A stretch of 61,701 nucleotides of DNA from Desulfobacterales bacterium (GTDB lineage Bacteria > Desulfobacterota > Desulfobacteria > Desulfobacterales > SURF-7), in contig JABHLN010000006.1 of NCBI GenBank assembly GCA_018693105.1, positions 1 through 61,701 on the forward strand, written 5' to 3'. Below, piece after piece: positions 1-51,711 of the stretch. Each line of letters starts with the position of its first letter. The first letter of the stretch is position 1. The notes below the pieces were generated by a model, which worked only from the letters and a program-made list of their open reading frames with translations, was not told where the DNA came from and made no database searches. The position numbers and the translations under genes are program-made.

Positions 1-76
1 AAGGCATACATGTAGTATGTCGAACTTCTGATCAAACGCTATAACGCAGTAGATGGAGACTTTTTACGACGCCATC
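1..76 (+). mobile_element. MITE-A copy 1 (left part cut off by window edge)
   Basis: Near-identical to the 3' half of 40071-40221; ends in ...GGAGACTTTTTACGACGCCATC. Confidence 0.9.
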
Positions 77-94
77 AGTAGTTTATTTTCATTA

Positions 95-1312
95 TTATTC
101 TACTTTAATTATTGCAGCATCTGCCTGGGCTAAACCTCCGCAGATACTTCCCATTGCATATCCCCCTCCGCGACGCCTTAATTCATACATAAGGTTCATC
201 ATCACTCTTGCTCCGCTTGAAGTATTAGGATGACCAATGGCAATTGCACTACCGTTAATATTTGTTTTCTTTCTTATGGCTTCAACTTTTGCCTTGTCTT
301 TATCACCAAGCAGGTATGTACTTACCAGCGTAACTGCTGCAAAAGCCTCATTTACTTCCATAACATCAATATCATCAAGGCCAAGGCCTGCAAGTTCAAG
401 CGCTTTCTGCATCGCAAAGGCCGGTCCTTCAGGAAGATTGTTTGGTTTTGTAGCAATGGATGTCATGGATACTATCGATGCAAGGGGTTCAAGACCAAGC
501 TCATCAGCTTTTTTACGAGTCATGAAAAGTATTGCTGTAGCACCGTCATTCAGGCCCGGAGCATTACCTGCAGTGATACCTTTTGAACCGTATATCGGTT
601 TCAGCCTGCCAAGCATTTCCATGCTCATATTTTCGCGATATTGTTCATCCTTTTCCATTGTGAAAGGGTCCTGCCTTGAAATCTTTACCTCTATGGGAAA
701 TATTTCTTCCTTGAACTTGCCGGCATCATATGCTGCCCCATAATTCTGATGACTTCTTAGTGCCCATTCATCCATTTCCTCTCTTTCAATTCCATGGGAA
801 TAAGCTACATCATCACTGTCGACTGATACAGGGTTATAATCCTTGTAACCAAGAGCGAGCAAAGGGTCTTCCATATTCACATTACCCATACGGAAGCCCT
901 GATATCTGAGGTTTCTCACGATAAGAGGTTCCTGGCTGAAAGATGTAGCTCCGCCACCGATTGCAACATCGATCTCACCCAGTTTCATTGCCATACATCC
1001 GAGTTTTACTGCAGACATGGCTGAAACACACGCCTTATCAAGTGAAATAGATGGGGTTTCAGGCGGCAATCCCGCTTTAAGCAAAGTCTGACGAGCAGCA
1101 ACGGGAGTAAAAACATCCTTACATACAGAAGTATCTCCAACACCCCAGAAAACCTCATCAACAACGCTAGGATCAAGGTTAACCCTGTTAAGAACTTCAC
1201 GCATGGGAATAGCTCCAAGATCAAAATAATCCATCTCCTTGAGCGAACCACAATACCGCCCAAAAGGAGTTCGAAGCGCACTTACTATTACAATATCATT
1301 TTCATTGCTCAT
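95..1312 (-). CDS. Thiolase (acetyl-CoA C-acyltransferase)
   Basis: DKACVSA catalytic Cys, NEAFA, GHP, CGG motifs; start moved to MSNEND behind GGAGG RBS. Confidence 0.92.
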   Translation of the reverse strand: MSNENDIVIVSALRTPFGRYCGSLKEMDYFDLGAIPMREVLNRVNLDPSVVDEVFWGVGDTSVCKDVFTPVAARQTLLKAGLPPETPSISLDKACVSAMSAVKLGCMAMKLGEIDVAIGGGATSFSQEPLIVRNLRYQGFRMGNVNMEDPLLALGYKDYNPVSVDSDDVAYSHGIEREEMDEWALRSHQNYGAAYDAGKFKEEIFPIEVKISRQDPFTMEKDEQYRENMSMEMLGRLKPIYGSKGITAGNAPGLNDGATAILFMTRKKADELGLEPLASIVSMTSIATKPNNLPEGPAFAMQKALELAGLGLDDIDVMEVNEAFAAVTLVSTYLLGDKDKAKVEAIRKKTNINGSAIAIGHPNTSSGARVMMNLMYELRRRGGGYAMGSICGGLAQADAAIIKVE

Positions 1313-1463
1313 AATTTTACTTCCTCCCGACATTTATTAATCTAACCAATACCTTCATAAAATCAGAGTTATTAACTCTAATAAGGCATCAATAGTATTT
1401 ATACATATTACAAATTATTGTTTTGTCTGCCTTAACCACATCCTAAAAACTTTTCAATTTTCA

Positions 1464-2414
1464 TTACCTTGATTTCCTGATCATTTCTACAACCTGCTCT
1501 GAGGCTGTATAGGGATCAAGTTCAAGATCACCAATCATTTTTACCCATTTCTGCAAAGAGTGATCATTTTTTAATGTCTCAAGGAATTCAGTTCTTATCT
1601 GTAGTGTAAGTATATCAAGAAACTGTGTAGTTCGCCTTTCCCGGTTCTTGATGCCTATAGCACTGCGTTGTTTGTAATAATCGTAGTGATTCACAGTTTC
1701 CTGTGCAAGCTCATCAACACCTTCTTTTGATAGTGCCTGGGTCTTTACTATTGGAACTTTCCAGTGGTCTCCTTCAACATCACATTTGTAATTTTGAACA
1801 CTTGAAAGCTCTGCTACAGTCTGATCAGCACCGGGCTTATCAGATTTATTTACTACCATGATATCGGCGATTTCCATTATACCCGCCTTCATAGCCTGAA
1901 GCGTATCACCATATCCGGGCATCAAGGCAAGAATTACGGTGTGGGCAAGCCTTGCTATCTCGATTTCACCCTGACCAACGCCAACTGTTTCAATAAGTAC
2001 AATATCCTTCCCTGATACGTCCATAATATCGGCAGCATCATTTACAGCAGAAGAAAGTCCTCCATGAGCACCTCTTGAAGCAAGAGAACGTATAAATACG
2101 TCCCTGTCACCAGTCAGGTCAATCATCCTTGCCCTGTCACCGAGAAGGGCTCCACCGGAAAAAGGACTGGAAGGATCAACTGCAAGAACACCTACAGACT
2201 TTCCCATTTTCCGAAAACTACCTACAAGAGCCGAAACAAGACAGCTTTTCCCGACACCAGGCGGGCCGGTTATACCTATAATATGAGCCTTACCACATTG
2301 GGAATAAATCTCCTTTATTACTGCAACAGCCTCAGGCTCACGTCTTTCCACCATTGAAATCAGACGGGCGGTAGATCTGACATCCCCGGCCTTAATTTTT
2401 TCAACCAAATCCAT
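1464..2414 (-). CDS. meaB: MeaB/ArgK GTPase chaperone of B12 mutases
   Basis: GITGPPGVGKS P-loop, VDPSSPFSGGALLGDR, ETVGVGQ, NKSD; adjacent to mutase genes. Confidence 0.95.
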   Translation of the reverse strand: MDLVEKIKAGDVRSTARLISMVERREPEAVAVIKEIYSQCGKAHIIGITGPPGVGKSCLVSALVGSFRKMGKSVGVLAVDPSSPFSGGALLGDRARMIDLTGDRDVFIRSLASRGAHGGLSSAVNDAADIMDVSGKDIVLIETVGVGQGEIEIARLAHTVILALMPGYGDTLQAMKAGIMEIADIMVVNKSDKPGADQTVAELSSVQNYKCDVEGDHWKVPIVKTQALSKEGVDELAQETVNHYDYYKQRSAIGIKNRERRTTQFLDILTLQIRTEFLETLKNDHSLQKWVKMIGDLELDPYTASEQVVEMIRKSR

Positions 2415-2833
2415 TATTTAATCATCCCTTTATCACCGGCCATACCCAGTTTTTTAATGCATTCAACAGCATTTTCAACCGGGCTGCCCGCGGGGAATAC
2501 TTCCTTAATACCCATTTCTTTAAGCTTTGGAATATCGTCAGGGTGCAGTACACCGCCCAAAACTACGGGAATGTCCTCGGCATCACTCTTCTTCAGTTCA
2601 TCCATCAAAATAGGTACAACTACAAGGTGGGCACCTGACAATATACTGATGCCGATCACATCAACGTCTTCCTGCAGAGCAATTTCCGCTACAGTTTCGG
2701 GAACGTTCTTAAGGCCGGTATAAATAACTTCCATTCCGGCTTCCTTCAATGCCTGTACAATTATCAGGGCACCGCGGTCATGCCCGTCAAGACCGATTTT
2801 TGCCATTAATACTCTGATGGTTTTTTCTTCCAT
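2414..2833 (-). CDS. Acyl-CoA mutase small (cobalamin-binding) subunit
   Basis: KIGLDGHDRG (DxHxxG), SILSGAH, GG motif. Confidence 0.95.
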   Translation of the reverse strand: MEEKTIRVLMAKIGLDGHDRGALIIVQALKEAGMEVIYTGLKNVPETVAEIALQEDVDVIGISILSGAHLVVVPILMDELKKSDAEDIPVVLGGVLHPDDIPKLKEMGIKEVFPAGSPVENAVECIKKLGMAGDKGMIK

Positions 2834-2858
2834 TATTTCTCACTCCCAATCCGTATCG

Positions 2859-4517: not shown

Positions 4518-4622
4518 TTTTATCACCCTCATTATTAGAGATTGATTAATCAATAATATTTAGGAAAACATTTCATTAAAATTAATGAAGCGACATAAGA
4601 GACGCCCCGTTAATAAATATAA

Positions 4623-5837: not shown

Positions 5838-5855
5838 ATCAACTCTCCTTTTCTA

Positions 5856-12393: not shown

Positions 12394-12517
12394 TTCATGA
12401 ACTATTTAAAAAATATAACCGGCGACTATATACAAATTGCCACATACAACTCATAGTGGTTTATCAGTATTGAAGGCGTACATGTAGTATTTCCAAATTC
12501 TCATAAAATCTATAACC
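12394..12517 (+). mobile_element. MITE-A copy 2, heavily decayed
   Basis: Retains TATAACC..CATACAA..CATAGTGGTTTATCAG..TGAAGGCGTACATGTAGTAT..CTATAAC in the right order and spacing. Confidence 0.7.
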
Positions 12518-14862: not shown

Positions 14863-15014
14863 GATGAATTCGTAAAAAGCATAACCGATGGCTAAGTAAA
14901 AATCTTCATATACAAGGCATAGTGGTTGGCCAGGCACGAAGACATACAATTAGTATGTCGAGCGTCTGGCCAAACGCTATAACGCAGTAAATGGTGACTT
15001 TTTACGACGCCATC
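14863..15014 (+). mobile_element. MITE-A copy 3 (intact, 152 bp)
   Basis: GATGAATTCGTAAAAAG...CTTTTTACGACGCCATC; perfect 6-bp TSD AATATT (14857-62, 15015-20). Confidence 0.93.
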
Positions 15015-35314: not shown

Positions 35315-35438
35315 ATTTATAATTTTTTATGCATCCTTACAATTTTAAAAAAAATATAAGCAACAGAGTTCTTTATGGAACATTTTTCAAGACTACAGAT
35401 CAGGTTTTAAATACTTCTGATTTTACCCATTTAAACAG

Positions 35439-36242: not shown

Positions 36243-36413
36243 ACTTTAACCTCCAAATTAATTATATTATTATTATTTTCTTTACAGAAGCTTCATAATC
36301 AATTTCTGATAAGATACCGGCAACAGTCGTGTTATAATATCGAAAAAGTATGCATCACTTCCAATAAGAATTCTTTTCCTGTTTTTCATGATAACTTCCC
36401 CAAAAATAAACGC

Positions 36414-38069: not shown

Positions 38070-38285
38070 CTCCTTTTGCTTTATAACTTTTCCATGTTTT
38101 TCCTTAAGAAATATTCAACCCGTAAAGCCGTATCACATATTAAATTCATCGGCAATCAAAGATACTGCAGTATGTATAATTATCCCCGAGACAACTTGAG
38201 ACCTTTGCAGAATGCTCATTATTGTTCAAGTTCAAGGAAGATGAAAATTTTATACCGGGATGACTTTGAACTAGGAGGAAAAGAA

Positions 38286-38323
38286 AAAGACCTTTGAAAA
38301 AAGTAAATTCTCCAAAGGTCTTT
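38286..38323. terminator. Hairpin downstream of the 38418 ligase
   Basis: AAAGACCTTTG / CAAAGGTCTTT perfect 11-bp inverted repeat. Confidence 0.55.
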
Positions 38324-38417
38324 GTAAATGCACCACATAGCAAAGGGAATGAAAAAGTAAGCAACGGATTGCTGCTTACTGAAACATGATTTCGGTTACA
38401 GGTCGATCATAATAATA

Positions 38418-40031
38418 TCATTTCATACAATCAGGATATTTAAATACATTCGAAGCATCCTTGCTGAAATCATCCTTTAACAGCCGACCAAGGTTTTTCT
38501 CAGATGCTGTCTTTGGAATTTCATCAACAACCTGAAGGTATGTGGGAATAAAACTCTTTTCAAGGTCTGAATTCAAGAGTGCTTCAAAGATATTTTTAGG
38601 TATTATTTCCTGGCCGGGAACAGCATTTAATGCAGCAACTATATCGCTTTCTCCAGGTGCTCCTGACTCTGCAGGAACTCCGTATACACATACATCGGAA
38701 ACTTCCGATAACTCAGCCATTGCCTTCTCAATAGATTCCGGAATTACAAAATCACCCTGACGCCTTAGCCCGCCACCCATACGAAAATCAAAAAACAACC
38801 AGCCATCTTCATCCTTGTGGACCATATCCCCTGTCCTGAGCCATCCTCCGCGGGTTTTTTCCTCTGAAGCTTTTTTGTTACCAATATACTCAACCTCGGT
38901 TTTTCCCTGTGGTAATCTCCCGATCAGTTCACCTATTTCACCGGGGTCAGTTTCAGTATCATCTTCTCTAACAACCTTCATCTCCCACATTCCTTCAAGG
39001 GGCTTTCCAAAAGATCCTATGGGACCGGCACCCACCGGATTATGTGCGAAGCCACCTTCAACAGTTCCGTACCATTCATGAATTTTTAAATTGAACCGTT
39101 TTTCAAAATTTTCCCAGATGGTTCTAGGTGTACCGGCACTGAGTACTTTTATGACCGGATTATCACCATCATTTGGTTTAACAGGTTCTGAATAAATTCC
39201 CATCATCATTCCACCAAGAAGAGAAAAAGTGGTGCATCCATATTTCCTGCACACATCCCAAATTCGGCTTTTTGTGAATTTGCGACTTATTACGCCTGGA
39301 ATAGAAAGAGTCAGAGCCGGAAGCATTGTAACGGCATTTGCATTTCCATGGGAAAGAGAAAGCCCGGTATAAAGTATATCATTCTCATCATACTGCCAGA
39401 CAAGCTTTGAAACAGCTTCTATACCCAGAAACCTATCGGCTTTACTTGTAACACCTTTGGGATTTCCTGTAGTCCCTGATGTATAAACTATCATAAAAGG
39501 ATCATTCAGAGAGTGCTGATCGGGAACTAAGCCGGGGGCCTCCGGACCTTCGAGTATTTCCTCCATACCTTGATATTTTGATGTGTCTACACCTTCAAAA
39601 TAATCACGGTTCATTACACTGACAAAATTCAGGTCAGGAATTGCCGGCAGCACTTTTTCCATATTCCCCATGAACTCACCGGCAAAGATAACACCTTTTG
39701 AGTTTGAATCTTTTATCTGGTATATCAGTTTATCACCTTTAGTGCGGGGATCTACAGGAACTATTACGGCTCCAAGGGCTGAAGCGGCATATTGGGCAAT
39801 AATTACTTCAGGGTGATTGCGAAGCAGGATTGTAAATACATCACCACGTCCTATGCCTTTCTTTTTTAATGCCTGAGCCAGTTTATTCCCCTTAAGAACA
39901 AGGTCAGAATAGGTTAGCACCTCATCAGAATATGGATGACATTCAAATGTCAAAACCTTGAAATCAGGTTTTTCCTCGGCTTTTGCCATCATTTCAAAAG
40001 CCATAATCCCGGGTAATTTACTTTCAGCCAT
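38418..40031 (-). CDS. CaiC/FadD17-like acyl-CoA ligase
   Basis: YTSGTTGNPKG, HGNA, YGTVEG, RTGD, PKTASEK. Confidence 0.9.
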   Translation of the reverse strand: MAESKLPGIMAFEMMAKAEEKPDFKVLTFECHPYSDEVLTYSDLVLKGNKLAQALKKKGIGRGDVFTILLRNHPEVIIAQYAASALGAVIVPVDPRTKGDKLIYQIKDSNSKGVIFAGEFMGNMEKVLPAIPDLNFVSVMNRDYFEGVDTSKYQGMEEILEGPEAPGLVPDQHSLNDPFMIVYTSGTTGNPKGVTSKADRFLGIEAVSKLVWQYDENDILYTGLSLSHGNANAVTMLPALTLSIPGVISRKFTKSRIWDVCRKYGCTTFSLLGGMMMGIYSEPVKPNDGDNPVIKVLSAGTPRTIWENFEKRFNLKIHEWYGTVEGGFAHNPVGAGPIGSFGKPLEGMWEMKVVREDDTETDPGEIGELIGRLPQGKTEVEYIGNKKASEEKTRGGWLRTGDMVHKDEDGWLFFDFRMGGGLRRQGDFVIPESIEKAMAELSEVSDVCVYGVPAESGAPGESDIVAALNAVPGQEIIPKNIFEALLNSDLEKSFIPTYLQVVDEIPKTASEKNLGRLLKDDFSKDASNVFKYPDCMK

Positions 40032-40070
40032 AACTTATCTCCTATTATTATATGTTTTTTTCGCAAGTTT

Positions 40071-40221
40071 GATGAACTCGTAAAAAGTATAACCGATGGC
40101 TAAGTAAAAATCTTCATATACAAGGCATAGTGGTTGATCAGGAGTGAAGGCATACATGCAGTACGTCGAACTTCTGATCAACCGCTATAACGCAGTAGAT
40201 GGAGACTTTTACGACGCCATC
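40071..40221 (+). mobile_element. MITE-A copy 6 (best preserved, 151 bp)
   Basis: GATGAACTCGTAAAAAGT...ACTTTTACGACGCCATC; perfect TSD AAGTTT (40065-70, 40222-27); fully paired 19-bp inner stem. Confidence 0.95.
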
Positions 40222-40313
40222 AAGTTTTATTCCAAAATAATTACTGATAATATCATAAAAGCCTTCCATCTGCATGGTTATTGAAAATTAAACTTTTTAC
40301 AAAAGCATTATTT

Positions 40314-40919
40314 TTAATCATTATCCGGAATAAGAAAACCTTTGATTGCCCTTACAAAAGATGCCTTTGCCCAGGCTGTAGTATGAGATTCCGGATCAAG
40401 AAACCACCGTGTAGCTATTCCTTGAGAAAAAGAACAAATAGCCCTTGCTGTGCTGTCAGGGTCAACACCAGTAAAGGTTTCGTTGCTAAGCCCGTCCTCA
40501 ATAACACCCTTCACTAGTTCTACCCAGCTTTCCACCCAATCATGGTATATAGTACGATATTCTTCGTCATGTATTGCCATGGACATACAGTCAATAAGGA
40601 TAGTAAACCCTATATTGCTATCAGAATCCCTCCGGTCATAAAGTGTCTGGAATGATAAAAGTTTTTCCAGGGGTTCGCCGTATTTTTCCATATTTTCTTC
40701 ACTTCTTTCGAGAATACGGCTGAAAAATTCATTAAAAACTGCTATGAAAAGTTCTTTCTTGGAATGAAAATAATGTGCAAGGCCGCCCTTGGAAAAGCCG
40801 GCAGCTTTTGCAATATCTGCCATTGTCACATTAGCATAACCCGAAGATGAAATTATCTTCATCCCGGCATTTAATATCTGGGTTTTTCTTATTGTTTCCA
40901 GCTCAGGTATATGAGGCAT
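40314..40919 (-). CDS. TetR-family regulator (BetI-like)
   Basis: VTMADIAKAAGFSKGGLAHYFHSK; start MPHIPE after AGGAG. Confidence 0.92.
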   Translation of the reverse strand: MPHIPELETIRKTQILNAGMKIISSSGYANVTMADIAKAAGFSKGGLAHYFHSKKELFIAVFNEFFSRILERSEENMEKYGEPLEKLLSFQTLYDRRDSDSNIGFTILIDCMSMAIHDEEYRTIYHDWVESWVELVKGVIEDGLSNETFTGVDPDSTARAICSFSQGIATRWFLDPESHTTAWAKASFVRAIKGFLIPDND

Positions 40920-40960
40920 AAATAAACTCCTGTGAACCCATAAAATCATATATTTCTACA

Positions 40961-41003
40961 ACCGACCGACTAACTGGACTGTTGACAGGTCAGCTGGTCG
41001 GTC
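40961..41003. promoter_or_regulatory. Possible TetR operator halves ACCGACC...GGTCGGT
   Basis: Inverted 7-mers just upstream of the TetR start. Confidence 0.4.
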
Positions 41004-41308
41004 ACTGAACCGTGTTAAAAAATCCTCCCATTAAAGTCAAGTCCTTTTTATTAATTTCCAATCTAAAAAAATATAATAATTACAAATTCAACAAAGACTT
41101 TACCTGTATGGCAGGGTTATCATAACAATGTATTGAAAATTATTAACGGTGAAAAACATGTCCCTTTATTGACCGTATTTATTATCGCTGATAGAAATAT
41201 GAAAAACCCACACAAGCCATATTTCTTGAACTTTTTTATTTTTATGTTAGTTATATCAATTCAATTTAATCATTAATAAAAGAAAGTTATTATCAGGAGA
41301 AACCATTC

Positions 41309-42544
41309 ATGACTAAAAAAAACAATGACAGGCAAAGCAAACCCGGCCCGCTTGATGGAATAAAAGTTGTCGAATATGGTGTGTTTCATGCTGGTCCGGG
41401 AGCAAATGCCATTCTGGGCGATCTTGGCGCAGAAGTTATTAAAATAGAGGCGGCTTCGGGAGACCCTTTACGATTATGGACAAAATCAGGTGAAAGAAAT
41501 TTTTCATTACCTAACGGCGAAGGCCTCCTTTTTGAAGTTTCAAACCGTAATAAGCAGGGAATCTGCCTCGATATAAAGAATGAAAAAGGATATGAAATTT
41601 TTCTTGATATGATTAAAGATGCTGATATTTTTCTCACAAACCTGAGGAAAAGTACAAAGAAAAAATTGGCTATTGATTATGATACACTATCTAAAACCAA
41701 CCCTAAACTTATACATGCAAATGTTTCAGGATACGGACCTGAAGGCCCCCTGAATAATATGGGTGCATTTGATCCCATGTGCCAGGGACGTTCAGGAATG
41801 ATGTATATTACCGGTTCGGAGAACCCAGTGCTTATCCAGTATGCTGTTCTTGATCAAGCCACAGCCATTGCAGCCAGTCAGGCGATAATGACTGCACTTT
41901 TTATAAGAGAACGGCAGGGGATTGGCCAGGAAATTCATATTTCCCTTTACAGCACAGCCATATGGCTTCTTCATTTCAATATGTTAATGACCAGCATGCT
42001 TTCAGAAAATCCGAATGTTCCCTGGATCCGTTCCTCAAACTCTCCCCTGCGCAACAACTTTCAATGCAAGGACGGGAAATGGATCATAGGAGTCCATCAC
42101 CCCGAAGAAAAATACTGGAAACCTTTTTGCAAGGCTACAAACAGAGAATCACTCATAGAGGATCCTCGTTTTATAGACCTTGAACATCGAATCAAAAATT
42201 GCAAGGAGTTGATAGCAATATTTGATGAGGTTTTTGAGACAAAAACACGGGATGAATGGATGGAAATACTGCCTGGTTACGGCCTTATGTTCACATCAGT
42301 TCAAGACATTTCAGAAGTATTAGATGACCCGCAGGCATTGGAAAACGATTATGTCGTTGATTTTGATTATGATGAATTCGGATCCTTCAAAATACCGGGC
42401 TATCCTGTACACTTCAGCACATTTCAGGCAGGCACAAAGACAGGAGCACCCAAAATAGGCGAGCATACCGATTTAATTATGGGGAAAATGGGGTACACCG
42501 CCGAGCAGATTGATGAACTTAGAAAAGAAGGTATAATAAATTGA
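41309..42544 (+). CDS. CaiB/BaiF family III CoA-transferase
   Basis: GPLDGIKVVE, LGDLGAEVIKIE, NRNK, GAFD, PKIGEHT. Confidence 0.95.
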   Translation: MTKKNNDRQSKPGPLDGIKVVEYGVFHAGPGANAILGDLGAEVIKIEAASGDPLRLWTKSGERNFSLPNGEGLLFEVSNRNKQGICLDIKNEKGYEIFLDMIKDADIFLTNLRKSTKKKLAIDYDTLSKTNPKLIHANVSGYGPEGPLNNMGAFDPMCQGRSGMMYITGSENPVLIQYAVLDQATAIAASQAIMTALFIRERQGIGQEIHISLYSTAIWLLHFNMLMTSMLSENPNVPWIRSSNSPLRNNFQCKDGKWIIGVHHPEEKYWKPFCKATNRESLIEDPRFIDLEHRIKNCKELIAIFDEVFETKTRDEWMEILPGYGLMFTSVQDISEVLDDPQALENDYVVDFDYDEFGSFKIPGYPVHFSTFQAGTKTGAPKIGEHTDLIMGKMGYTAEQIDELRKEGIIN

Positions 42545-42589
42545 AAGGGATCTATAAATTTGCTCTGAATCCCGCCTTTTTATGATATT

Positions 42590-43138
42590 TTATTTATCTA
42601 TCTTTAAATTCTTAAGTGCAGCAAATTGTGGATTTATATACTCATTTTCACAGTCACATTTCATATCATTCAGATTTGCACCGCAATTAGAACAAAGGCC
42701 TTTACATGATTCCCGACAAAGGGGTTTTACAGGAAAAGCCAATATCAGCTGTTCCTGAACAGAATCCTTAAGTTCAATCATCCCTCCTGAAAAATTAACT
42801 ACCTGCATATCATCTGTGCTTAGCTCAATTTCATCATCCAACAATCCATCAGGATCTTCTCCTTCTTCAGGCACAAAGGTCAATGAAAACGCTGGTCCAA
42901 TAAACGTTTCGTACTTCTCAACGCATCTACCGCATTGAATTCGTGCTTTAGTTTCAATATTTCCCGTCACCTCAATTACATTTATATTTCTTTTTACATT
43001 CAGCTTTATATCTATAGGAGAAATAAAATCACATTCACCGGCATTAACCATCTCTTCAAGAACAGGAAAATCATTAAACGTTTTTGAGTAACTCCGTGAA
43101 AGAACCGATTCTTTGATATCATCAATATCTATAAACAT
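42590..43138 (-). CDS. yceD: YceD/DUF177 protein
   Basis: CGRC, PLCRESCKGLCSNCGANLN..CDC, PQFAALK. Confidence 0.92.
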   Translation of the reverse strand: MFIDIDDIKESVLSRSYSKTFNDFPVLEEMVNAGECDFISPIDIKLNVKRNINVIEVTGNIETKARIQCGRCVEKYETFIGPAFSLTFVPEEGEDPDGLLDDEIELSTDDMQVVNFSGGMIELKDSVQEQLILAFPVKPLCRESCKGLCSNCGANLNDMKCDCENEYINPQFAALKNLKIDK

Positions 43139-43477
43139 GGTGGAAACTCCTTATAAACTAATTGCAATTAATAATGTGAAATAAATTATAAATTATTAAA
43201 GGTGTCAAATCAATGTGATAAATTTGTAGATAAATCCATATTAAGTTAATCGAGCATTCGGGAAGTTTTTCCAGTTAAGCGGCTCTAAGGATAATTATCG
43301 ATTCCGCTCTTTGTAAAACTTTGAACAAAAAACTCCCTCACCCTTGAGTTAATTTTATTTTTTCATTTCCATTGACATATATTAAATCAAAAACTTAAAT
43401 AAGTGATGGCTCAAATGGAGAAAGCCTGAAAGTGACACACAAAATAAATTATAAATAAAAACCATAGGAGAAATAAA

Positions 43478-43900
43478 ATGACTGGTAATGATATTCAAAC
43501 AGACCTGAATAAGCTTATAGAAGAATGGATCGACACACCGGAACAAACAAAAAAAGCGTTTCTTCGATTAAAAAAACACCTTGAGTCACAAAGCGAAGTT
43601 AAATTTGATTTCAATGCACGACCGGGAATAAGCTATTCACTTCGTGCAACACATAATAAACAAAAAAGGCAATTGTATGTTATGTTAGATATTATTGACG
43701 ACGATCCTGAAAACCGATGGCTTTCTATATGTTTTTATGGTGAAATGATTACAGATCCTGATGAAGTTGGAGATCTTGTACCCGAAGGTCTTCTTGGAGA
43801 AGACGGCCATTGTTTTGATGTTGACGACTGGGATGAAAACAACCTGAAATATCTTGAGGCAAGGCTTGATGAAGCACATCAAAACGCATCAGAAGAGTAA
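43478..43900 (+). CDS. Hypothetical acidic protein
   Basis: AGGAG RBS; motif-like RPGISYSLRA, DDDPENRWLSICFY, VPEGLLGEDGHCFD. Confidence 0.85.
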   Translation: MTGNDIQTDLNKLIEEWIDTPEQTKKAFLRLKKHLESQSEVKFDFNARPGISYSLRATHNKQKRQLYVMLDIIDDDPENRWLSICFYGEMITDPDEVGDLVPEGLLGEDGHCFDVDDWDENNLKYLEARLDEAHQNASEE

Positions 43901-43998
43901 AATAGAATATTTTGTTAATTCATCATCAGGTCCTGCTATCAAAAATAACAAAACCTTGAGGCGGAAAAGCCGAACACATAAAATCATGCTTCTCAATT

Positions 43999-44520
43999 TT
44001 AATAATATGGCTTTCCGCTAAATGCAGGATTAATCCACTTTGAATCCCGGTTGAGTTGTCTTCGAAGGAGATCATCTACCAACACCTTAAATCTATTATA
44101 AAGCTGAACATTAATGTCATCCCTGAGATTTTCAACACATTTAATAGCTTTGGAAAACAGTCCTTTCAATAAAGTGTTTTCCTCGTGAAGAACCGAAATG
44201 GCAGGAACACCTTCTTTCTTTTTCGACTGATCGTTTAAGACTATTTCAAGCTCTGATTTAAATTGCCGGATCTCATTATTGCTATTCTGAAGATTACCTT
44301 CATTGAGTAATTCATTGAATTTAAAAAGTGATTCTTTCAAGTCACGATTGTCTTTATCCAAAACAGAACCTTCAACATCCACCCTTAAAAGAATATGGTC
44401 AAGCAATAATCCCATGCAGCGTACGGAACTCTGAGCACGGGGATCGTCAATTAAAGGGTAAATATCTGTTTCAAGGCTCGACTTCATTCCCAAAACGATT
44501 TCTGAAATTGAAGGTCGCAT
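43999..44520 (-). CDS. Hypothetical helical protein (likely partner of the phosphotransferase)
   Basis: 173-aa ORF, AGGAGG RBS, co-oriented with upstream gene. Confidence 0.75.
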   Translation of the reverse strand: MRPSISEIVLGMKSSLETDIYPLIDDPRAQSSVRCMGLLLDHILLRVDVEGSVLDKDNRDLKESLFKFNELLNEGNLQNSNNEIRQFKSELEIVLNDQSKKKEGVPAISVLHEENTLLKGLFSKAIKCVENLRDDINVQLYNRFKVLVDDLLRRQLNRDSKWINPAFSGKPYY

Positions 44521-44540
44521 AATAATTCCTCCTAATATTA

Positions 44541-44594
44541 GATGAACTCGTATAAAGTATTAACGATGGTTAAGTAGAAATCTTCATAGCCATC
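44541..44594 (+). mobile_element. MITE-A copy 7, internally deleted (54 bp)
   Basis: Both left-end boxes joined directly to terminal GCCATC; hairpin core missing. Confidence 0.85.
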
Positions 44595-44598
44595 AAAT

Positions 44599-45597
44599 TT
44601 ATATACCTATATAATCTGCAAGCTTATAAATTATTTGACGACTCCAAAGCGCCATATTTGGAAGCTGCATACGATAGTCTTTTCCTGAATTAAAAAGATT
44701 AAGTCCCATTTGGAGACTTACGAATGTCTTCAAATCCCGAAATGTCTTGAAATATTCAATGTCCTGCAGTGATGGATTTATCCCGCTCACTTCCTTATAA
44801 TGATCAATCAACATCGGCATTAGGCGAGGATCATCTCTAAAAAACTGACACCAGGCAAAATCTTCGGGCGGATCTCCAAGGTGAGCATATTCCCAGTCAC
44901 ACATTGCAACAATTTTCTCTCCCTGCCAGATCTCTTCTCCAATACCATTGTTTCCTTTCAGCAAAGCGATAGCAGAAGATTCACCCGGCTGGTTTTCCCT
45001 TAGCCAGATCATAATACGATCCACCAGCGGGCTTGGTTCAGTAACATATTTTTCTATACGTTTCTGCCAAAAATCCAGATCGAGCCGCACACAATCGTTC
45101 TTGCTTTCAGGCACCTGCATTATTTCGTCAAAACCCAGAGCTTTCCAGTCGCATGTGTGTAACAAGGCAAGCTTTTCAGCCATTTCCCTGGTCATTTTCT
45201 CTCGAAGAGAATCATATTTGGGATCAGGGTCTTTTAGTTCAGGAATAAGAACCCTTCCTTCAACCGTTTCACGCACAAAAAACTCCCTCCCGTCAATCAG
45301 CCACTCGGGGTCGTTTTCGAACCATAAAGTTACCGGTAAAGGGATCTTACTGTTTTGAAGTTTATTATATACGGAATACTCAAAGAAAAGAGGAATATGG
45401 CAAACACTTCCTCCGGGTGTATCCATGCGAAAAACATATCCCTTCTCAATTAATCCCCCTTTCAGCTTCATGACAGTATTTACAAACCATGTTTCACGTG
45501 ACAGGCCCGGAAAAGACTGTTTAAATGAAATAACTTTTAAATCAATAGTTTCCGGTAGACGATACTTCAGATAATTTTCAAAAACCGATGCATTCAT
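44599..45597 (-). CDS. APH/choline kinase-like phosphotransferase-family protein
   Basis: GLSRET, DWEYAHLGDPPEDFAW; HGD catalytic loop altered. Confidence 0.85.
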   Translation of the reverse strand: MNASVFENYLKYRLPETIDLKVISFKQSFPGLSRETWFVNTVMKLKGGLIEKGYVFRMDTPGGSVCHIPLFFEYSVYNKLQNSKIPLPVTLWFENDPEWLIDGREFFVRETVEGRVLIPELKDPDPKYDSLREKMTREMAEKLALLHTCDWKALGFDEIMQVPESKNDCVRLDLDFWQKRIEKYVTEPSPLVDRIMIWLRENQPGESSAIALLKGNNGIGEEIWQGEKIVAMCDWEYAHLGDPPEDFAWCQFFRDDPRLMPMLIDHYKEVSGINPSLQDIEYFKTFRDLKTFVSLQMGLNLFNSGKDYRMQLPNMALWSRQIIYKLADYIGI

Positions 45598-45796
45598 AAT
45601 TCTGCCCCCTGATAGAAAATTAAATATAATACCAAGTGAAAAAGATTATAATTGAATTTCCCCATACTTGCTCAATAATATAATAAATAGTATTATTTCA
45701 ATAGTGTTCTTAAAATTGATAAAAACAAATTCAATATTAAAGCCTTTTTTTCTTGCTGCTCAATTTATTAAAGATAATAAATCCTGAAAAATATTT

Positions 45797-47056
45797 ATGA
45801 AATTTATTGCAGATTTACATGTACATTCAAAGTATTCCATGGCCACTTCCAGAAGTCTTGACCTTGAAAATATTTATATCTGGGCCCAAATCAAAGGAAT
45901 AACCGTCGTCGGCACCGGTGACTTTACTCATCCTGCATGGTTCTCTGAAATTAAAGAAAAACTTGTCCCGGCAGAAAACGGTCTTTTCAAGCTGAAAAAT
46001 GAATTGGAAATTATATGCAGCGAGAAGGTTCCTCCTTCATGTCGCCGCAAGGTACGTTTTATACTATCAACTGAAATCAGCAGTATTTATAAAAAAAAAG
46101 GTAAAACAAGGAAGAATCATAACCTTGTATTTGTACCCGATCTAAAAACCGCATCAGAATTCAACTCAAAACTTGATGCTATAGGAAATATAAAATCGGA
46201 CGGCAGGCCAATACTTGGCCTTGATGCAAGGAATCTTTTTGAAATACTTCTCGAAACATCCGATATGTCTTACCTGATACCAGCCCATATATGGACCCCG
46301 TGGTTTTCAATGCTAGGGTCAAAGTCCGGTTTTAATTCTATAAAAGAATGTTTTGAAGACCTTACGCAATATATTTTTGCAGTTGAAACAGGCCTTTCAT
46401 CAGACCCATCCATGAACTGGTGTATTTCAGAACTCGACGATGTGACACTTATATCAAACTCGGATGCCCATTCACCTTCAAAGCTCGGAAGGGAAGCAAA
46501 CATATTAAATACAGAATTAGATTATTTCTCAATAAGAAAAACCCTGAAGTCCGGTGATCCGGCTCATTTTATAGGTACATATGAATTTTTCCCCGAAGAG
46601 GGCAAATATTATATGGATGGCCATAAAAAGTGTAATATACGCCTATCCCCCTTTGAAAGCATGAAAATGAACGGTATGTGCCCCAGGTGCGGAAAGCCAT
46701 TAACACTCGGCGTGTTGAACAGAGTGGAAGAACTGTCCGACAAGCCCAAAGGTAAAAAGCTTAAAAGGCATCATCCTTTTAACAGTATGATACCTCTTGA
46801 AGAAATCCTTTCTGAAATTCTAAAAGTAGGCCCAAAATCCAAAAAGGTTCAAAATAGTTACTTTTCTGCCATAAATACTTTCGGGCCGGAACTTGAAATA
46901 CTTAATACCTTACCTGAAGATGTTTTAAAAAAATCAGAAATCCCGCTTTTAGGTGAAGCCATAAAAAGAATGCGAAACAGAAAAATCAAAATTTCCCCGG
47001 GATATGACGGAGAGTTCGGAAAGATCAGGCTTTTCAATAAAGGAGAAATAGATTAA
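45797..47056 (+). CDS. PHP-domain endonuclease Q-family protein
   Basis: ADLHVHSKYS, GTGDFTHP, PAHIWTPWFS, ETGLSSD, NSDAHS, PEEGKY, CPRCG, PGYDGEFG. Confidence 0.9.
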   Translation: MKFIADLHVHSKYSMATSRSLDLENIYIWAQIKGITVVGTGDFTHPAWFSEIKEKLVPAENGLFKLKNELEIICSEKVPPSCRRKVRFILSTEISSIYKKKGKTRKNHNLVFVPDLKTASEFNSKLDAIGNIKSDGRPILGLDARNLFEILLETSDMSYLIPAHIWTPWFSMLGSKSGFNSIKECFEDLTQYIFAVETGLSSDPSMNWCISELDDVTLISNSDAHSPSKLGREANILNTELDYFSIRKTLKSGDPAHFIGTYEFFPEEGKYYMDGHKKCNIRLSPFESMKMNGMCPRCGKPLTLGVLNRVEELSDKPKGKKLKRHHPFNSMIPLEEILSEILKVGPKSKKVQNSYFSAINTFGPELEILNTLPEDVLKKSEIPLLGEAIKRMRNRKIKISPGYDGEFGKIRLFNKGEID

Positions 47057-47218
47057 AAGCTGCTTATATAAAAAACAGTTTATAGTAACAAAAAAAATCT
47101 CATACAGCCTGAAATATTTTGAAAAGGGCAAACATATTATCTTTTTTTAGGCAGGATATTTTAACTTATATTATAGATAATCAATAAACACTAATCTTTA
47201 TGAAAGCCGGGAGTGATT

Positions 47219-47752
47219 ATGAGACTTTCAAAACCCAGAGTAACCCCTATGGATATTTCAGAACTTGATGAGGAGCAACTTGAACTAATTAATCGTGCTT
47301 CAATGGATAGACCCCCCAATATTATTCTCACACTGGCTCGCCACAAAAAGCTGCTTAAACGCTGGCAGGTATTTCTAGGGCATATTCTTAACAAATCAAC
47401 TCTTCCACCACGTGAACGGGAAATTGTAATTTTACGCATCGGCCATCTCTGTCGATCAGGCTATGAGTGGTCACAGCATGTAGAAATCGGTAAAAAAGCC
47501 GGCCTTAAGGATGAGGAGATAGAAAGGATAAAGCTGGGACCTGATGCAAAAGGCTGGTCGCCAATAGACAGTACAATAATTCGCGCTACCGATGAGCTTC
47601 ATTCAGATTCATTTGTTTCTGATACTACATGGAATGAACTGAAACAGACATATAATGACAATCAGTTGATGGACCTTATATTCACTGTGGGAAATTATAC
47701 AATGGTATCCATGGCCCTTAATACATTAGGTGTCCAGCTGGAATCTGAATAA
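47219..47752 (+). CDS. Carboxymuconolactone decarboxylase/AhpD-like protein
   Basis: LPPREREIVILR, YEWSQH, FTVGNY. Confidence 0.88.
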   Translation: MRLSKPRVTPMDISELDEEQLELINRASMDRPPNIILTLARHKKLLKRWQVFLGHILNKSTLPPREREIVILRIGHLCRSGYEWSQHVEIGKKAGLKDEEIERIKLGPDAKGWSPIDSTIIRATDELHSDSFVSDTTWNELKQTYNDNQLMDLIFTVGNYTMVSMALNTLGVQLESE

Positions 47753-47953
47753 TGAACCTTAAGTTACAGAATTTATTATAAAGGTCTGTGCTTTCCAATG
47801 GCTTTTTGGGGAAATAATGTATGTCGATTCAAAATCGTAAAATTAGCACCCAACCATAAACTTATACATTCCCACTATGAGTAAACCGGTTTCAATTCAC
47901 TCCCGTTTAGGGGTGCCATAAATCCAAGGAATAAAGAACCTAATTATTATTGG

Positions 47954-47995
47954 GCCTTGACTATAACAGAAGTTCATCTCTGATATAGTCAAGGC
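47954..47995. terminator. Hairpin at 3' end of the porin gene
   Basis: GCCTTGACTATA / TATAGTCAAGGC perfect 12-bp stem. Confidence 0.7.
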
Positions 47996-48004
47996 TCTTA
48001 TTAT

Positions 48005-49255
48005 TTAATACTCAAAGGCCAGTTTAACAAACAACTCATTTGAATTATCGTCAGCAGTGCTTCCTGCAGCTTTTTCAAACAGGCTTCTTCGATATTCTGC
48101 CATAAGGCTTGTTACAAAATCATCCTTCTCAAAAAGTGTCCATGTAAACCCCATGCCGTACCTGTTATCCGGATGACCGTCCTGGTCCCCAGAAATATCA
48201 TCATTAAATCCCTCGTACCGGAAAGCGATATCAAGCCATTCCGTGGCTTTATATGCAACTGCCGCAAACCATGCAGATTCTTTGTTTTCAATGGCATTCA
48301 TTGAGTTCTTTTCTCTTTGGACAGCCCCGATATATTCTATATCCATAACCAGTTTGCCTTTCTCATAATTTACCATACCACCTAGGGTATTATTTCGCTG
48401 GTCACCACCGGGTTCTGAATTATAAAAAACAGCCATGGTCATGCAGTTTAAAGGTTTTGCAGTTATGTTTGCAATAAATGATGAAACATCATCAGTCTCA
48501 CTATAGGACATATTCATACCCCCTGCCCGCCACGCTGCAGGAACACCTGATGAGTCGATATATGTCCTGTCAAGCTCATAAGCGCCTTCAAGCATCCTGG
48601 ACATAAGCGCTTCGCCTTTATAAAAAGTTATGGAAAAATCCAGATCGTGGCTATCTGCCGCATAACCCATTGTAACACCTGTTTCAGCTATTTCATAAAG
48701 TTCCTGTGTTATGGGATCATTAATCAAATTGTTCTGAAAACATCCAAAAGGCTGCCCTCTCTTACCGCCTGTAAAATAAAAAGGGATCCCTTCTTTTTGA
48801 ATACTAACAATTGCCTCATCCCAGAAAACCCGGTCATTATCATCAAGATCTTCACCCTTTAATACAAGGTTTCCGGTAACAAACTCATGGAAACCGATTT
48901 CAACACCCAGTTCCACGGTACCGATATTCATATTTGAAGTTGAATTATTTACCAGGTTACTACCTGTATCACCGTCATCAGCATAACTGAAATCCAGCTC
49001 AATGCCCCCGGTAACATTAACCCTATTTGCCCAGAAATAAACTCCGCCTTCAGAAACGACCTGACCGCTTTCAGACTTTATATTTTTGATCTTTTCATTC
49101 TTTTCTATAAGCTTTGCCTCAAGCATGCTTACCCTCTCCTTTAATACAACAAGCTCTTTGAGTATAGCTTCGCTGGAAAGATTCCCGCATAAACCATCGG
49201 ATGCTGATGCTACTATGATTACTAAAACAAAAACAAACATAGACCTGTTAAACAT
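48005..49255 (-). CDS. LbtU-like outer-membrane porin
   Basis: Signal peptide, coiled coil, PFG.F....I.DP.T motif, terminal aromatic (LAFEY); start MFNRS after GGGGGC. Confidence 0.8.
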   Translation of the reverse strand: MFNRSMFVFVLVIIVASASDGLCGNLSSEAILKELVVLKERVSMLEAKLIEKNEKIKNIKSESGQVVSEGGVYFWANRVNVTGGIELDFSYADDGDTGSNLVNNSTSNMNIGTVELGVEIGFHEFVTGNLVLKGEDLDDNDRVFWDEAIVSIQKEGIPFYFTGGKRGQPFGCFQNNLINDPITQELYEIAETGVTMGYAADSHDLDFSITFYKGEALMSRMLEGAYELDRTYIDSSGVPAAWRAGGMNMSYSETDDVSSFIANITAKPLNCMTMAVFYNSEPGGDQRNNTLGGMVNYEKGKLVMDIEYIGAVQREKNSMNAIENKESAWFAAVAYKATEWLDIAFRYEGFNDDISGDQDGHPDNRYGMGFTWTLFEKDDFVTSLMAEYRRSLFEKAAGSTADDNSNELFVKLAFEY

Positions 49256-49271
49256 ATTTTGCCCCCATTTC

Positions 49272-49420
49272 AATGATATTTCAAAAAATAACATATGGCT
49301 AAATAAAATTCTTTATATACAAGACATATCGGTTGGTCATAAGTGAAGGCATATATCTAGTATGTCTAACTTCTAACCAATCCCTATAACACAGTAGATG
49401 GAGATTTTTACAACGCCATC
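49272..49420 (+). mobile_element. MITE-A copy 8 (diverged); overlaps DUF4198 stop codon
   Basis: Collinear core; ends AGATGGAGATTTTTACAACGCCATC. Confidence 0.85.
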
Positions 49421-50198
49421 ACTTCTGCTGCCATTCCACAAACTCCACCCATATCACAGCTCCCAGCTCAACATCTTTATCTTCACCCTTATATTTCATC
49501 TTTTTATCGGAACCGTTGAGTGCCGCAAAACCCCACCAACCTGACTTTGAAACAGCATAAGTAAAAACACCATTCATATCGGCTTTAACTGTCTGGGTAA
49601 CCATATAGTCAGTAGGAGCCATAGCTTTTCCATCCTGGTTAAAATATTCTACTTCAACAATAGAACCCGGCACCGGTTTACCATCAAGCATAACAACACC
49701 CTGAAATACATTTCCTGCGTAAAGACCGAATGGTCTTGTCAGAGGAACAATTTCTGTTTTCAAACCCAGTGGCTCATCCCATCCGTCTTCATATCCAAAT
49801 GAGGCAATTACAGTTTTTGTATAATGAATAATAAAACAATCTTCCGCCGGTTCCCAATATGGTTCAGGTTCCATAAAGAAGGCATAAACACCCGGTCGTT
49901 TAACCTTGTAATTTATAGTCCATGCGGTATTTTCAAACACCTTCGTCTCTTTCAATGCCCCAAGAAGATTTTGGACTTTCCCATCGCTTACAACCGAAAA
50001 TTTAGCCGGCTTAACCATGATCATGCCGATACCTTCAAAAGGATGAGAAAAAGAAATATTTAGAGAAACCTTTTGTTTATCTCCCTGCATAACCATACTA
50101 TCAGATGGAACAAGCATGCCGAAATGAGCAAGTGCATTACCTGTCATCATTAATAAAAAAACTCCTGCCGTAAATAAAACTTTTGTTTTTTTTCTCAT
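49419..50198 (-). CDS. DUF4198 periplasmic Co/Ni-uptake protein (NikK/NikM-associated)
   Basis: ALA|HF signal cleavage leaving an N-terminal His; FSHPFEG, PYWEPAED, EIVPLTRPFGL, GWWGFAAL. Confidence 0.88.
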   Translation of the reverse strand: MRKKTKVLFTAGVFLLMMTGNALAHFGMLVPSDSMVMQGDKQKVSLNISFSHPFEGIGMIMVKPAKFSVVSDGKVQNLLGALKETKVFENTAWTINYKVKRPGVYAFFMEPEPYWEPAEDCFIIHYTKTVIASFGYEDGWDEPLGLKTEIVPLTRPFGLYAGNVFQGVVMLDGKPVPGSIVEVEYFNQDGKAMAPTDYMVTQTVKADMNGVFTYAVSKSGWWGFAALNGSDKKMKYKGEDKDVELGAVIWVEFVEWQQK

Positions 50199-50214
50199 TT
50201 TCATCTCCTTATAT

Positions 50215-50356
50215 TAATAAATATAACTGATGGTTAAGTATAAATCTTCATATATTAGGCATATTGGTTAATTAGTGAAGAAGACATACATGTAGTATGT
50301 CGAATTTCTGATAAACGAATATAACGCAGTATATGGAGACTTTTTACGACACCATC
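50215..50356 (+). mobile_element. MITE-A copy 9 (left end eroded)
   Basis: TATAACTGATGGTTAAGTA...GGAGACTTTTTACGACACCATC. Confidence 0.87.
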
Positions 50357-50363
50357 TAAAAAT

Positions 50364-50467
50364 AAAAAAAGCCGCAAAGGTAATACAGGTATCCGATACC
50401 TGAAACCGCCTTCATGGCTTGATGATTATCTTGTAATATGACCGGCTCTTCCGACTTCAATCGGAAT
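50364..50467 (-). ncRNA. Candidate cis-regulatory leader, copy 1 (UGAAG hairpin plus AGCCAYGAAGG terminator hairpin)
   Basis: TTCCGA-TTGAAG-TCGGAA, 29 nt, AGCCATGAAGG..CCTTTGCGGCT + T-tract; upstream of DUF4198. Confidence 0.55.
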
Positions 50468-50597
50468 TTTTCATCAATCTTGTCCGGTTTTTTTCAGGTA
50501 AATATTATTCCCGTACCGAAGAGTATAATTTTACCTTGATTCAAAGATGCAAAACGATAGTCAACTGATAAAGAATTTTTCCATAATTTATATTATT

Positions 50598-50749
50598 TAT
50601 ATACTCGTAAAAAGCACAACAGATTGCTAAGTAAAAATCTTCATATACAAGGCATAATGTTTGGTCAGTCGTGAAGGCATACATGTAGTATGTCAAACGT
50701 CTGGCCAAACATTATAACGCAGTAGATGGTGACTTTTTACGACGCAATC
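50598..50749 (+). mobile_element. MITE-A copy 10 (152 bp)
   Basis: ACTCGTAAAAAG...GACTTTTTACGACGCAATC; flanks ATTATT/ACTATT (5 of 6 match). Confidence 0.9.
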
Positions 50750-50750
50750 A

Positions 50751-51368
50751 CTATTTTTCTTTGCTTTTAAAATAAAGAGCAATCCCAACAAGTCCTAATA
50801 TGTAGCCAAAACCACCCATTATATCGGTAAAATCGGGCCCCTTTTCTTCCCGGATTTTTGCAATAGTCCTTGAAACAGGCTTCAACCTTGAATCAACAAC
50901 CTCTTCCACAACCTTTCTTATCTGTTCAATATCAACTGAAACTTTAGTGGATGCTACCTTTACGTCTTCTTCTTCTTTATTAATGAGAGTCGATGTTAAA
51001 GTAGCGTTATCCTCCTGAAGTTCATCTGCTTTTAATAGATATTCAGCTTTATGTCCCATACTGGATTCCATAACAATTCGAAGATCTGATTTGACCGGAA
51101 TCTTGAACGAAAATGCACCTTTTCTATTTGTTACCCCTTCCAATAATTTTTTGCCTGACATGTCAAAAACTTCAACATGCCCTCCAATTACTTTCTTTTT
51201 TCCACTGAAATAACTGTCAACATAAACGGTATCACCTTCACCCCATGCAAAAAGATAAACCTTGTGAGCATAAACCGATGAGGTAAAACTTAATAAGAAG
51301 AATAAGATTGTCATGGTTAAAAAAAATCGACCGAGTAAGATAAACGAAAAATATTTTTTCCCCTTCAT
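50751..51368 (-). CDS. CbiL/NikL-like Co/Ni transport component
   Basis: VYA|HKV N-terminal His, MGH motif, C-terminal TM DIMGGFGYILGL. Confidence 0.78.
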   Translation of the reverse strand: MKGKKYFSFILLGRFFLTMTILFFLLSFTSSVYAHKVYLFAWGEGDTVYVDSYFSGKKKVIGGHVEVFDMSGKKLLEGVTNRKGAFSFKIPVKSDLRIVMESSMGHKAEYLLKADELQEDNATLTSTLINKEEEDVKVASTKVSVDIEQIRKVVEEVVDSRLKPVSRTIAKIREEKGPDFTDIMGGFGYILGLVGIALYFKSKEK

Positions 51369-51388
51369 AATATATTCCTCATCATGTC

Positions 51389-51489
51389 AAAAAAAAAGCC
51401 ACAAACTTTGAGGGACTTTTAATTCCATCTCAAACCTTCGTGGCTGTTTTAATAATTTAAAATTTTTTGCCTATCGGGCTTCATACCCG
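51389..51489 (-). ncRNA. Candidate cis-regulatory leader, copy 2
   Basis: CGGG-TATGAAG-CCCG, 29 nt, AGCCACGAAGG..TTTGTGGCT + T-tract, ending about 20 nt before the ATG. Confidence 0.55.
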
Positions 51490-51497
51490 TTAAAAAA

Positions 51498-51526
51498 AAA
51501 CTATTATAATCAATCAATTTTGTCAA
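51498..51526 (-). promoter_or_regulatory. Sigma70-like promoter of the CbiL-like gene
   Basis: TTGACA-17 nt-TAGTTT immediately 5' of leader copy 2. Confidence 0.55.
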
Positions 51527-51553
51527 TATCTATTTTCTTAAACACTCACCTTT

Positions 51554-51711
51554 GATTAACTCGTAAAAAGTCAACTCGGGATGGCAAAGTAAAAAGTTCA
51601 AGATCAGGGCGGCGCAAAATTCGAGGAATGAGGTGTACTTAAAGTACGACGCAGTGATCCCGCCATGGCGGGACAGCGTAACGCAGACATTGAACTTTTT
51701 ACGAAGCCATC
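51554..51711 (+). mobile_element. MITE-A sister-subfamily copy (158 bp) with 16-bp palindrome
   Basis: Same doubled left end and CTTTTTACGAAGCCATC right end, different core; flanks ACCTTT/ACCTTA. Confidence 0.85.

Follow-up and report, generated by a model that had tools for sequence, protein, structure and literature searches.

Miniature repeats of a Desulfobacterales genome, their probable IS1182-like partner and their orientation at stop codons

A family of short, strongly folding repeats is found in a 61,701-bp stretch of DNA from a Desulfobacterales bacterium (assembly GCA_018693105.1, contig JABHLN010000006.1, positions 1 to 61,701), called the window here. The typical copy is 152 bp long and is located between genes, for example in and around an operon that includes a gene with a DUF4198 domain (49419-50204(-), Pfam). 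An earlier note, made from the letters of this DNA, described twelve copies of a repeat like the transposable elements of the miniature inverted-repeat type (MITEs) and proposed that a DDE transposase encoded elsewhere had moved them. The analysis of the whole assembly (3.24 Mb, 171 contigs, 38% G+C) and of related genomes makes it very probable that the repeat is a MITE with an IS1182-like insertion sequence as its partner. In this genome the copies next to stop codons stand almost always in one orientation. This orientation bias, a second subfamily of the repeat and an inner end nested within its left end go beyond the earlier note.

All twelve copies are present in the window, at or near the places where that note put them (Table 1), and eleven of them are on the same strand. 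A repeat search groups them into families D1, D2, D3, and D5 (family lengths 59-175 nt). An nhmmer profile of subfamily 1, built from seven window copies, matches eleven of the twelve places. The copy at 51554-51711 is undetected by it and represents subfamily 2: the outer end (GATTAACTCGTAAAAAG), the inner end-like repeat, and the right end are common with subfamily 1, while the core is different and GC-richer. The two ends are imperfect inverted repeats as described, the left end agreeing with the reverse complement of the right end at 14 of 17 positions. The duplications noted next to five copies are also there, two of them perfect (AATATT and AAGTTT) and three, at the copies starting at 20859, 50598, and 51554, matching at five of six positions. 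Two details are different. The copies had been called intergenic without exception; this holds in general, but the TGA stop codons of the open reading frames (ORFs) 49419-50204(-) and 17492-17761(-) straddle the right junction of a copy. The minus-strand copy exists but does not end at 35314, which is its inner end-like repeat; the profile match reaches 35326 and the end is extrapolated to about 35338.

Table 1. Copies of the repeat in the window (flanks: matching positions of the six-base duplication)
Position	Strand	Description	Profile match	Flanks and neighbouring genes
1-76	+	Right half of a subfamily-1 copy, cut by contig start	profile 77-152, E 8.6e-22	right flank AGTAGT; ORF 95-1333(-) ends 19 nt off
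12394-12517	+	Decayed copy without right end (profile 122-152 missing)	profile 3-121 at 12398-12516, E 5.7e-12	2/6
14863-15014	+	Full copy, perfect duplication AATATT	nhmmer E 2.3e-46	6/6
17342-17493	+	Full, diverged copy	nhmmer E 3.1e-37	3/6; right junction straddled by TGA of 89-codon ORF 17492-17761(-)
20859-21010	+	Full copy, 5/6 duplication	nhmmer E 8.6e-43	
35178-35338	-	Old decayed copy; inner end-like repeat at 35314 (about position 25 of the profile)	profile 13-144 at 35326-35186(-), E 5.1e-8; 35338 extrapolated	
40071-40221	+	Best-preserved copy	nhmmer E 1.2e-46	6/6; perfect duplication AAGTTT at 40065-40070 and 40222-40227
44541-44594	+	54-bp internally deleted copy; left end and terminal GCCATC kept	profile 1-51, E 8.3e-6	4/6
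49272-49420	+	Copy between two genes of one operon	nhmmer E 1.2e-35	TGA stop of DUF4198 gene 49419-50204(-) is the element's last TC plus flanking A
50215-50356	+	Copy without first 10 bases	profile 11-152, E 4.9e-36	left end about 10 nt before ribosome-binding site of gene 49419-50204(-)
50598-50749	+	Full copy, 5/6 duplication	nhmmer E 3.1e-44	right end 2 nt from stop of ORF 50751-51368(-)
51554-51711	+	Subfamily-2 copy, 158 bp		duplication ACCTTT/ACCTTA

In the whole assembly the subfamily-1 profile gives 496 matches at E<=1e-3 (nhmmer), 443 of them non-overlapping and 166 full length. The 443 matches cover 51,666 bases, or about 1.6% of the genome. Their density, one per 7.3 kb (443 in 3.24 Mb), is close to the guess of about one per 5 kb made from the window. 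Subfamily 2 adds 69 core-bearing matches, found by BLAST with 51554-51711. Copy length is exactly 152 bp in 95 of the 166 full-length copies and usually falls between 149 and 154 bp; subfamily 2 is 158 bp. Identity to the consensus ranges from 63 to 97% among the full-length copies (median 91%), and no pair is more than 98% alike, which bears out the suggestion that the family was active over a long period. Because the transposase is not in the assembly and the copies have drifted to this median, the family here looks like an old and probably immobile population. Contig ends are touched by 55 matches, in 52 of the 171 contigs. Therefore the repeat breaks the assembly, and the window itself starts inside a copy. 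A family that makes up this share of a genome and fragments it matters to anyone assembling or annotating such genomes.

The footprints of transposition are clear when the copies are taken together. Perfect 6-bp duplications flank 61 of the 166 full copies, while shuffled pairings of flanks give 2.6 on average and 10 at most (1000 shufflings). The register of the duplication is specific: 61 perfect cases are found at offset 0, 21 at +1, and no more than two at any other offset, and duplications of other lengths are also much rarer. Those at +1 are taken to be alignment slips. The target logo, T-Y-[A-A-N-N-T-T]-R-A, is near-palindromic and AT-rich, and it confirms genome-wide the A-nnn-TT-like target that had been read from a few window copies. 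Positions 2 and 5 of the 6-mer covary on both sides of the copies; therefore the duplication is truly 6 bp and not 2 bp plus bases of the element. As a side observation, target-like sequence is remade on either side of every insertion, as TC+AANNTT and as AANNTT+GA, and this may favour clusters or tandems. Four copies lie within 2.4 kb at 49272-51711, in and around one operon and all on the plus strand, and the first 40 copies listed include what appears to be one tandem, near 9335 of contig C1.

A candidate for the autonomous partner is found in related genomes, where it was traced by following matches to the ends only. The first such element (in G027) measures 1900 bp; its left end is perfect, its right end matches, and it contains a single long ORF. 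Another is found in G019. Of the 16 loci listed from the same order, 15 allow the element to be delimited, with a size of 1879-1916 bp and GATGnnnnCGTAAAAAG ends in all of them and perfect 6-bp duplications of the AANNTT type in ten. In the sixteenth locus (L035) only the left end is clear. The proteins of the G027 and G019 elements (P0001 and P0002) match DUF772, DDE_Tnp_1_6, and DDE_Tnp_1 above the Pfam cut-offs. We take the pair of DUF772 and DDE_Tnp_1_6 to be the mark of the IS1182 family. The ORFs encode 536-595 amino acids, and the 13 intact ones share 120 invariant columns, including Y480, R483, and E487. The nearest annotated plasmid genes are called 'IS1182 family transposase' and are 25-26% identical to the partner protein. 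Of the 301 genomes of the order, 47 have the transposase at E<=1e-20.

In closed or nearly closed genomes with the insertion sequence, MITE-sized pairs of its ends are matched 56, 32, 3, 2, and 0 times, and a reversed control pattern has no match. The two highest counts belong to genomes of the same order (G170 and G229; e.g., L235 and L238) in which the same 17-bp ends surround quite different cores. Several unrelated miniature families in different sulfate reducers apparently descend from one lineage of insertion sequences. The 18-base right end of the present family occurs in bins labelled Desulfobacteraceae, Desulfobulbaceae, Desulfocapsaceae, Desulfoarculaceae, Desulforapulum, and others. 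Matches to positions 1-40 in another relative (G005) were considered as ends of an insertion sequence and rejected; they belong to a 155-bp miniature family with a common left end.

The element starts with GA and ends with TC, and every junction would thus remake T|GA. Because of these ends, the stop codon of a target gene would be rebuilt and its protein left unchanged. For three genes with a stop at the right junction, the comparison was made with relatives from other genera that lack the element. The DUF4198 gene of the window ends in ...QQK-TGA, and its orthologues in four such relatives end at the same lysine. The next gene follows 2-4 nt after the stop in two of the four; therefore the element sits in a tight operon junction. 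Another gene, encoding 598 amino acids on contig C79, has the same terminal aspartate in seven relatives without the element, and one of them has the exact 6-mer ATGATT once, followed by GA. The third gene (344 amino acids, contig C113) stops at the same position in five of seven relatives and extends two residues further in the other two. Its stop codon is TGA, while G001 and G009, the two relatives with the same last five residues (...GIEL vs ...GVEL), have TAA. This difference is predicted by the model, since the stop would be rebuilt from the duplicated T and the GA of the element. A gene on contig C68 was dropped as a comparison, because only paralogues at 34-36% identity were found. The earlier note had asked for such empty orthologous sites, and in these comparisons, which are between genera, the gene ends are unchanged without the element and one site has a single 6-mer. 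A rebuilt stop codon explains how an element can stand inside a tight operon junction without harm to the protein.

The consensus of subfamily 1 folds into a long hairpin of 47 pairs (positions 25-152), bordered by an A run and a T run, and its first 24 nt are unpaired. RNAalifold on all 166 copies gives a poor consensus (-5.7 and 0.0), and the fold of the consensus sequence is used instead. Its energy is -55.8 kcal/mol on the forward strand and -36.4 on the reverse strand; across the copies the forward strand is more stable by 10 kcal/mol on average. The left end is nested: its outer end occupies positions 1-17, and the inner end-like repeat follows at 25-41. Forms of 127 nt that begin at the inner end (position 25) are found in this genome and in relatives. 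The most variable columns are paired positions of the stem, where the two main haplotypes have either TGATCA or TGGCCA in each arm and double changes number 186. These paired changes show that the hairpin, as RNA or as DNA, was maintained while the source copies evolved. Deviations of the G-U type exceed those of the A-C type (240 vs 148) and favour the forward strand; being largely inherited within subfamilies, they carry little weight. The Rfam covariance models give no match at gathering scores over the window and none at E<=1 on 40040-40260, so that the repeat is not an already named family there, a possibility that the earlier note had raised. In a simple scan of 49100-51800, promoter-like sites number 11 (9.4 expected) and terminator-like sites 2 (1.4 expected), with no terminator within the elements, no site of either kind placed tellingly in one, and no excess over shuffles.

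Genes were called crudely (2682 ORFs, 82% of the genome), and a strong relation between element orientation and gene ends is seen all the same. The right end of subfamily-1 copies faces a gene 3' end in 143 cases and the left end in 85. Of the 143 right ends, 95 are no more than 10 nt from the stop codon, while only 4 of the 85 left ends are (Fisher p 2e-22). A TGA stop straddles the junction at 34 right ends and at no left end. Subfamily 2 has the same tendency (26 of 33 right ends and 7 of 36 left ends within 10 nt). Farther than 10 nt from the stop, the two orientations are equal (35 vs 38). The bias is also found between convergent genes (30 vs 2), and therefore a downstream gene cannot explain it. 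Nor can the direction of replication, since the bias exists on both contig strands; genome-wide, the plus strand has 56 antisense copies and the minus strand 42. For the same reason, replication was dropped as an explanation of the one-strand pattern of the window.

The strength of the bias depends on the age of the copies. The copies of G036 are young, with a median pairwise identity of 98.7% and near-perfect duplications; there, 2 of 20 right ends and 1 of 20 left ends lie within 10 nt of a stop. In G035, whose copies are old (median pairwise identity 79.8%), the numbers are 14 of 20 and 0 of 20. Within the present genome, with age taken from the profile score, stop-adjacent right ends make up 17 of 75 in the youngest third and 78 of 151 in the older two thirds (p 3e-5). 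Because the bias is absent with young copies and strong with old ones, the copies were likely filtered after insertion rather than guided at insertion, in a comparison of genomes that also differ in base composition and subfamily. Between them, an unbiased young family and the near-total bias of old ones offer a natural experiment in the sorting of transposon insertions by selection.

By mechanism the repeat is an ordinary MITE. It is too small for a transposase, has terminal inverted repeats and a duplication of fixed length, shares its ends and duplication with an autonomous element in relatives, and has filled and empty sites across genera. It was most likely moved in trans by the DDE transposase of the 1.9-kb IS1182-like insertion sequence, as the matching ends suggest. 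The transposase would bind the terminal repeats, excise or copy the element, and insert it at the palindromic, AT-rich T-Y-AANNTT-R-A by a 6-bp staggered cut. The earlier note was right that a transposase is missing from the window, and its proposal of a DDE enzyme acting in trans is supported by the autonomous element in the related genomes. Several results weigh against this attribution. None of the partner type was found in this assembly either (tblastn with both proteins, E<=0.01), where DUF772 and DDE_Tnp_1 have no match, and five other MITE-rich draft genomes are also without it. The sole DDE_Tnp_1_6 match in the assembly is an 86-codon remnant (C24:23340-23501(-)) with no MITE-type ends nearby and no tblastn similarity to the partner transposase; this remnant and the DDE_Tnp_1_6 matches in G035 and G036 were rejected as partners, since no matching ends are nearby and they belong to other elements. 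The best NCBIfam model for the partner proteins is IS1182 (NF033551), with 169 and 152 bits, which is under the curated cut-off of 270. Two printed entries of the IS1182 family list direct repeats of 4 bp (PMC3281130, PMC3852290), not 6 as here. Finally, there is no empty allele over 34000-52500 in the contigs of four other metagenome DNA runs, which are all from the same strain. These contigs break at repeats, and the joints listed link different copies and remove none, which says nothing on mobility. With the transposase absent from this assembly and from the five drafts, the case for mobilisation rests on the ends, the duplications, the target, and the co-occurrence in closed genomes; the draft genomes may, on our assumption, have lost multi-copy insertion sequences in assembly or binning. 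A quite different origin would be a palindrome like the repetitive extragenic palindromes (REP) or the palindrome-associated transposable elements (PATE), moved by a Y1 transposase of the IS200/IS605 type, or a family of small-RNA genes. The long hairpin with its more stable forward strand and the eleven of twelve window copies on one strand would fit such an origin. However, IS200/IS605-type elements such as REP and PATE are not known to make a target duplication and have hairpin ends instead of inverted repeats, while clear 6-bp duplications and 17-bp terminal inverted repeats are found here. The one-strand pattern of the window follows the direction of the genes, with antisense copies genome-wide on both strands, and no Rfam family is found even at E<=1. 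This origin is therefore very improbable, and the MITE with an IS1182-like partner is kept.

The cause of the orientation bias is much less certain than the nature of the element. Surviving copies have the right end against the stop codon, and the transcript of the gene would thus enter the reverse strand of the hairpin. In the opposite orientation the element, once transcribed, may harm the upstream gene through an orientation-dependent effect of the hairpin on upstream mRNA, comparable to that reported for the ERIC (enterobacterial repetitive intergenic consensus) elements in Yersinia. This effect is the explanation we favour from the present analysis, and there are points that count against it. 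The bias is weak in a mixed sample of named genome bins from other species (15 of 50 right ends and 7 of 43 left ends, p=0.15). In 139 of 157 copies, the strand that would be transcribed from the upstream gene is the one with the less stable fold. Stop-adjacent copies keep the hairpin no better than others after correction for divergence (p=0.54), and therefore there is no sign of positive maintenance. The last result bears equally on the reading that copies at gene ends were domesticated, acting as hairpins of the 3' untranslated region that stop transcription or shield the mRNA and being positively selected. Such a role would agree with a stop-adjacent share that doubles from young to old copies, and with a 47-pair hairpin having paired changes in both arms and A and T runs at its flanks. 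However, the stop-adjacent copies are on average more diverged than the others (identity 0.872 vs 0.893), no terminator is seen within the elements of 49100-51800, and no Rfam family matches; domestication is thus rather doubtful. It is somewhat less likely still that the bias arises at insertion, by a transposase complex with two unlike ends that reads a directional feature of gene ends, right end first. In its favour, copies with perfect duplications in this genome are already biased (17 vs 1), and the left end, with its outer and inner repeats, differs structurally from the right one. Against it, the target logo is almost a palindrome, no bias is seen among the young copies of G036, and the stop-adjacent share grows with copy age. 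Moreover, no gene stop lies within 10 nt of the right end in any of the 15 full insertion sequences, and stops at the left-end junction do occur in other species (3 of 43 in the mixed sample). Filtering after insertion, with the transcribed hairpin acting on the mRNA upstream of it, is preferred to both.

A more far-reaching proposal is that the element is a self-spreading module of gene 3' ends, which enters a stop codon, rebuilds it with bases of its termini, and in one orientation adds a hairpin tail that the cell keeps. We regard it as rather doubtful. If it were true, one transposon family would have rewritten the mRNA ends of genes by the hundreds, in several sulfate-reducing lineages. 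Bolder again would be the guidance of insertion by a directional feature of gene ends.

Two further features are found in the window. A third miniature repeat, unrelated to both subfamilies, is located near the contig end (60339-60476 and 61631-61701), where a stretch of 71 nt occurs twice with 99% identity, the copies being 1292 bp apart and the second at the contig end. Its first copy closes with an inverted copy of its own start (CAGATATC..GAGACTGTCGAAAAA) and looks like a MITE of about 138 bp; a 167-codon ORF between the two copies has no Pfam match. The other feature is a pair of neighbouring ORFs of about 520 codons, 27686-29248 and 29343-30902, both on the minus strand. They share 300 nt at 87% identity (family D4) and are probably a tandem gene duplication.

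No published description or name of the present family was found in the literature, in a search that excluded ISfinder and paper supplements. MITEs tied to IS1182-type elements are already in print, for example those derived from ISMac2 in Methanosarcina acetivorans (PMC3852290). They are small, non-coding, multi-copy elements (160-169 bp, 7-14 copies) that share their ends with an IS1182-type insertion sequence. While their direct repeats are 4 and 0 bp and their inverted repeats 25-26 bp, the corresponding lengths are 6 and 17 bp here (PMC3852290). The present family is also distinguished from them by its nested left end and its hundreds of copies. The partner itself can be compared with ISPse1 of Paracoccus seriniphilus, a single-ORF element of the IS1182 family, which is the family nearest to the partner's transposase (PMC3281130). 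The printed entry for ISPse1 gives 1653 bp, inverted repeats of 16/16, and direct repeats of 4 bp (PMC3281130), while the partner has 1879-1916 bp, 17-bp ends, and 6-bp duplications.

Another comparison is with Chunjie, a MITE found in Geobacter uraniireducens. It is AT-rich and strongly folding, belongs to related anaerobes, and has some copies that overlap genes. However, its length (178-235 bp), inverted repeats (21 bp), and direct repeats (9 bp), as given in a review, differ from the 152, 17, and 6 bp found here, and it is a different family. The ERIC elements of Yersinia are also hairpin-forming MITEs of similar size that adjoin genes (PMC2229807). They have 7-bp inverted repeats with TA termini according to that review (PMC2229807), and no sequence in common with the present family. 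Their orientation is described there as crucial for destabilising the upstream transcript, by way of a ribosome-exposed RNase E site (PMC2229807). While the effect of ERIC is thus one on transcript stability, the orientation effect proposed for the present family is drawn from where its copies survive.

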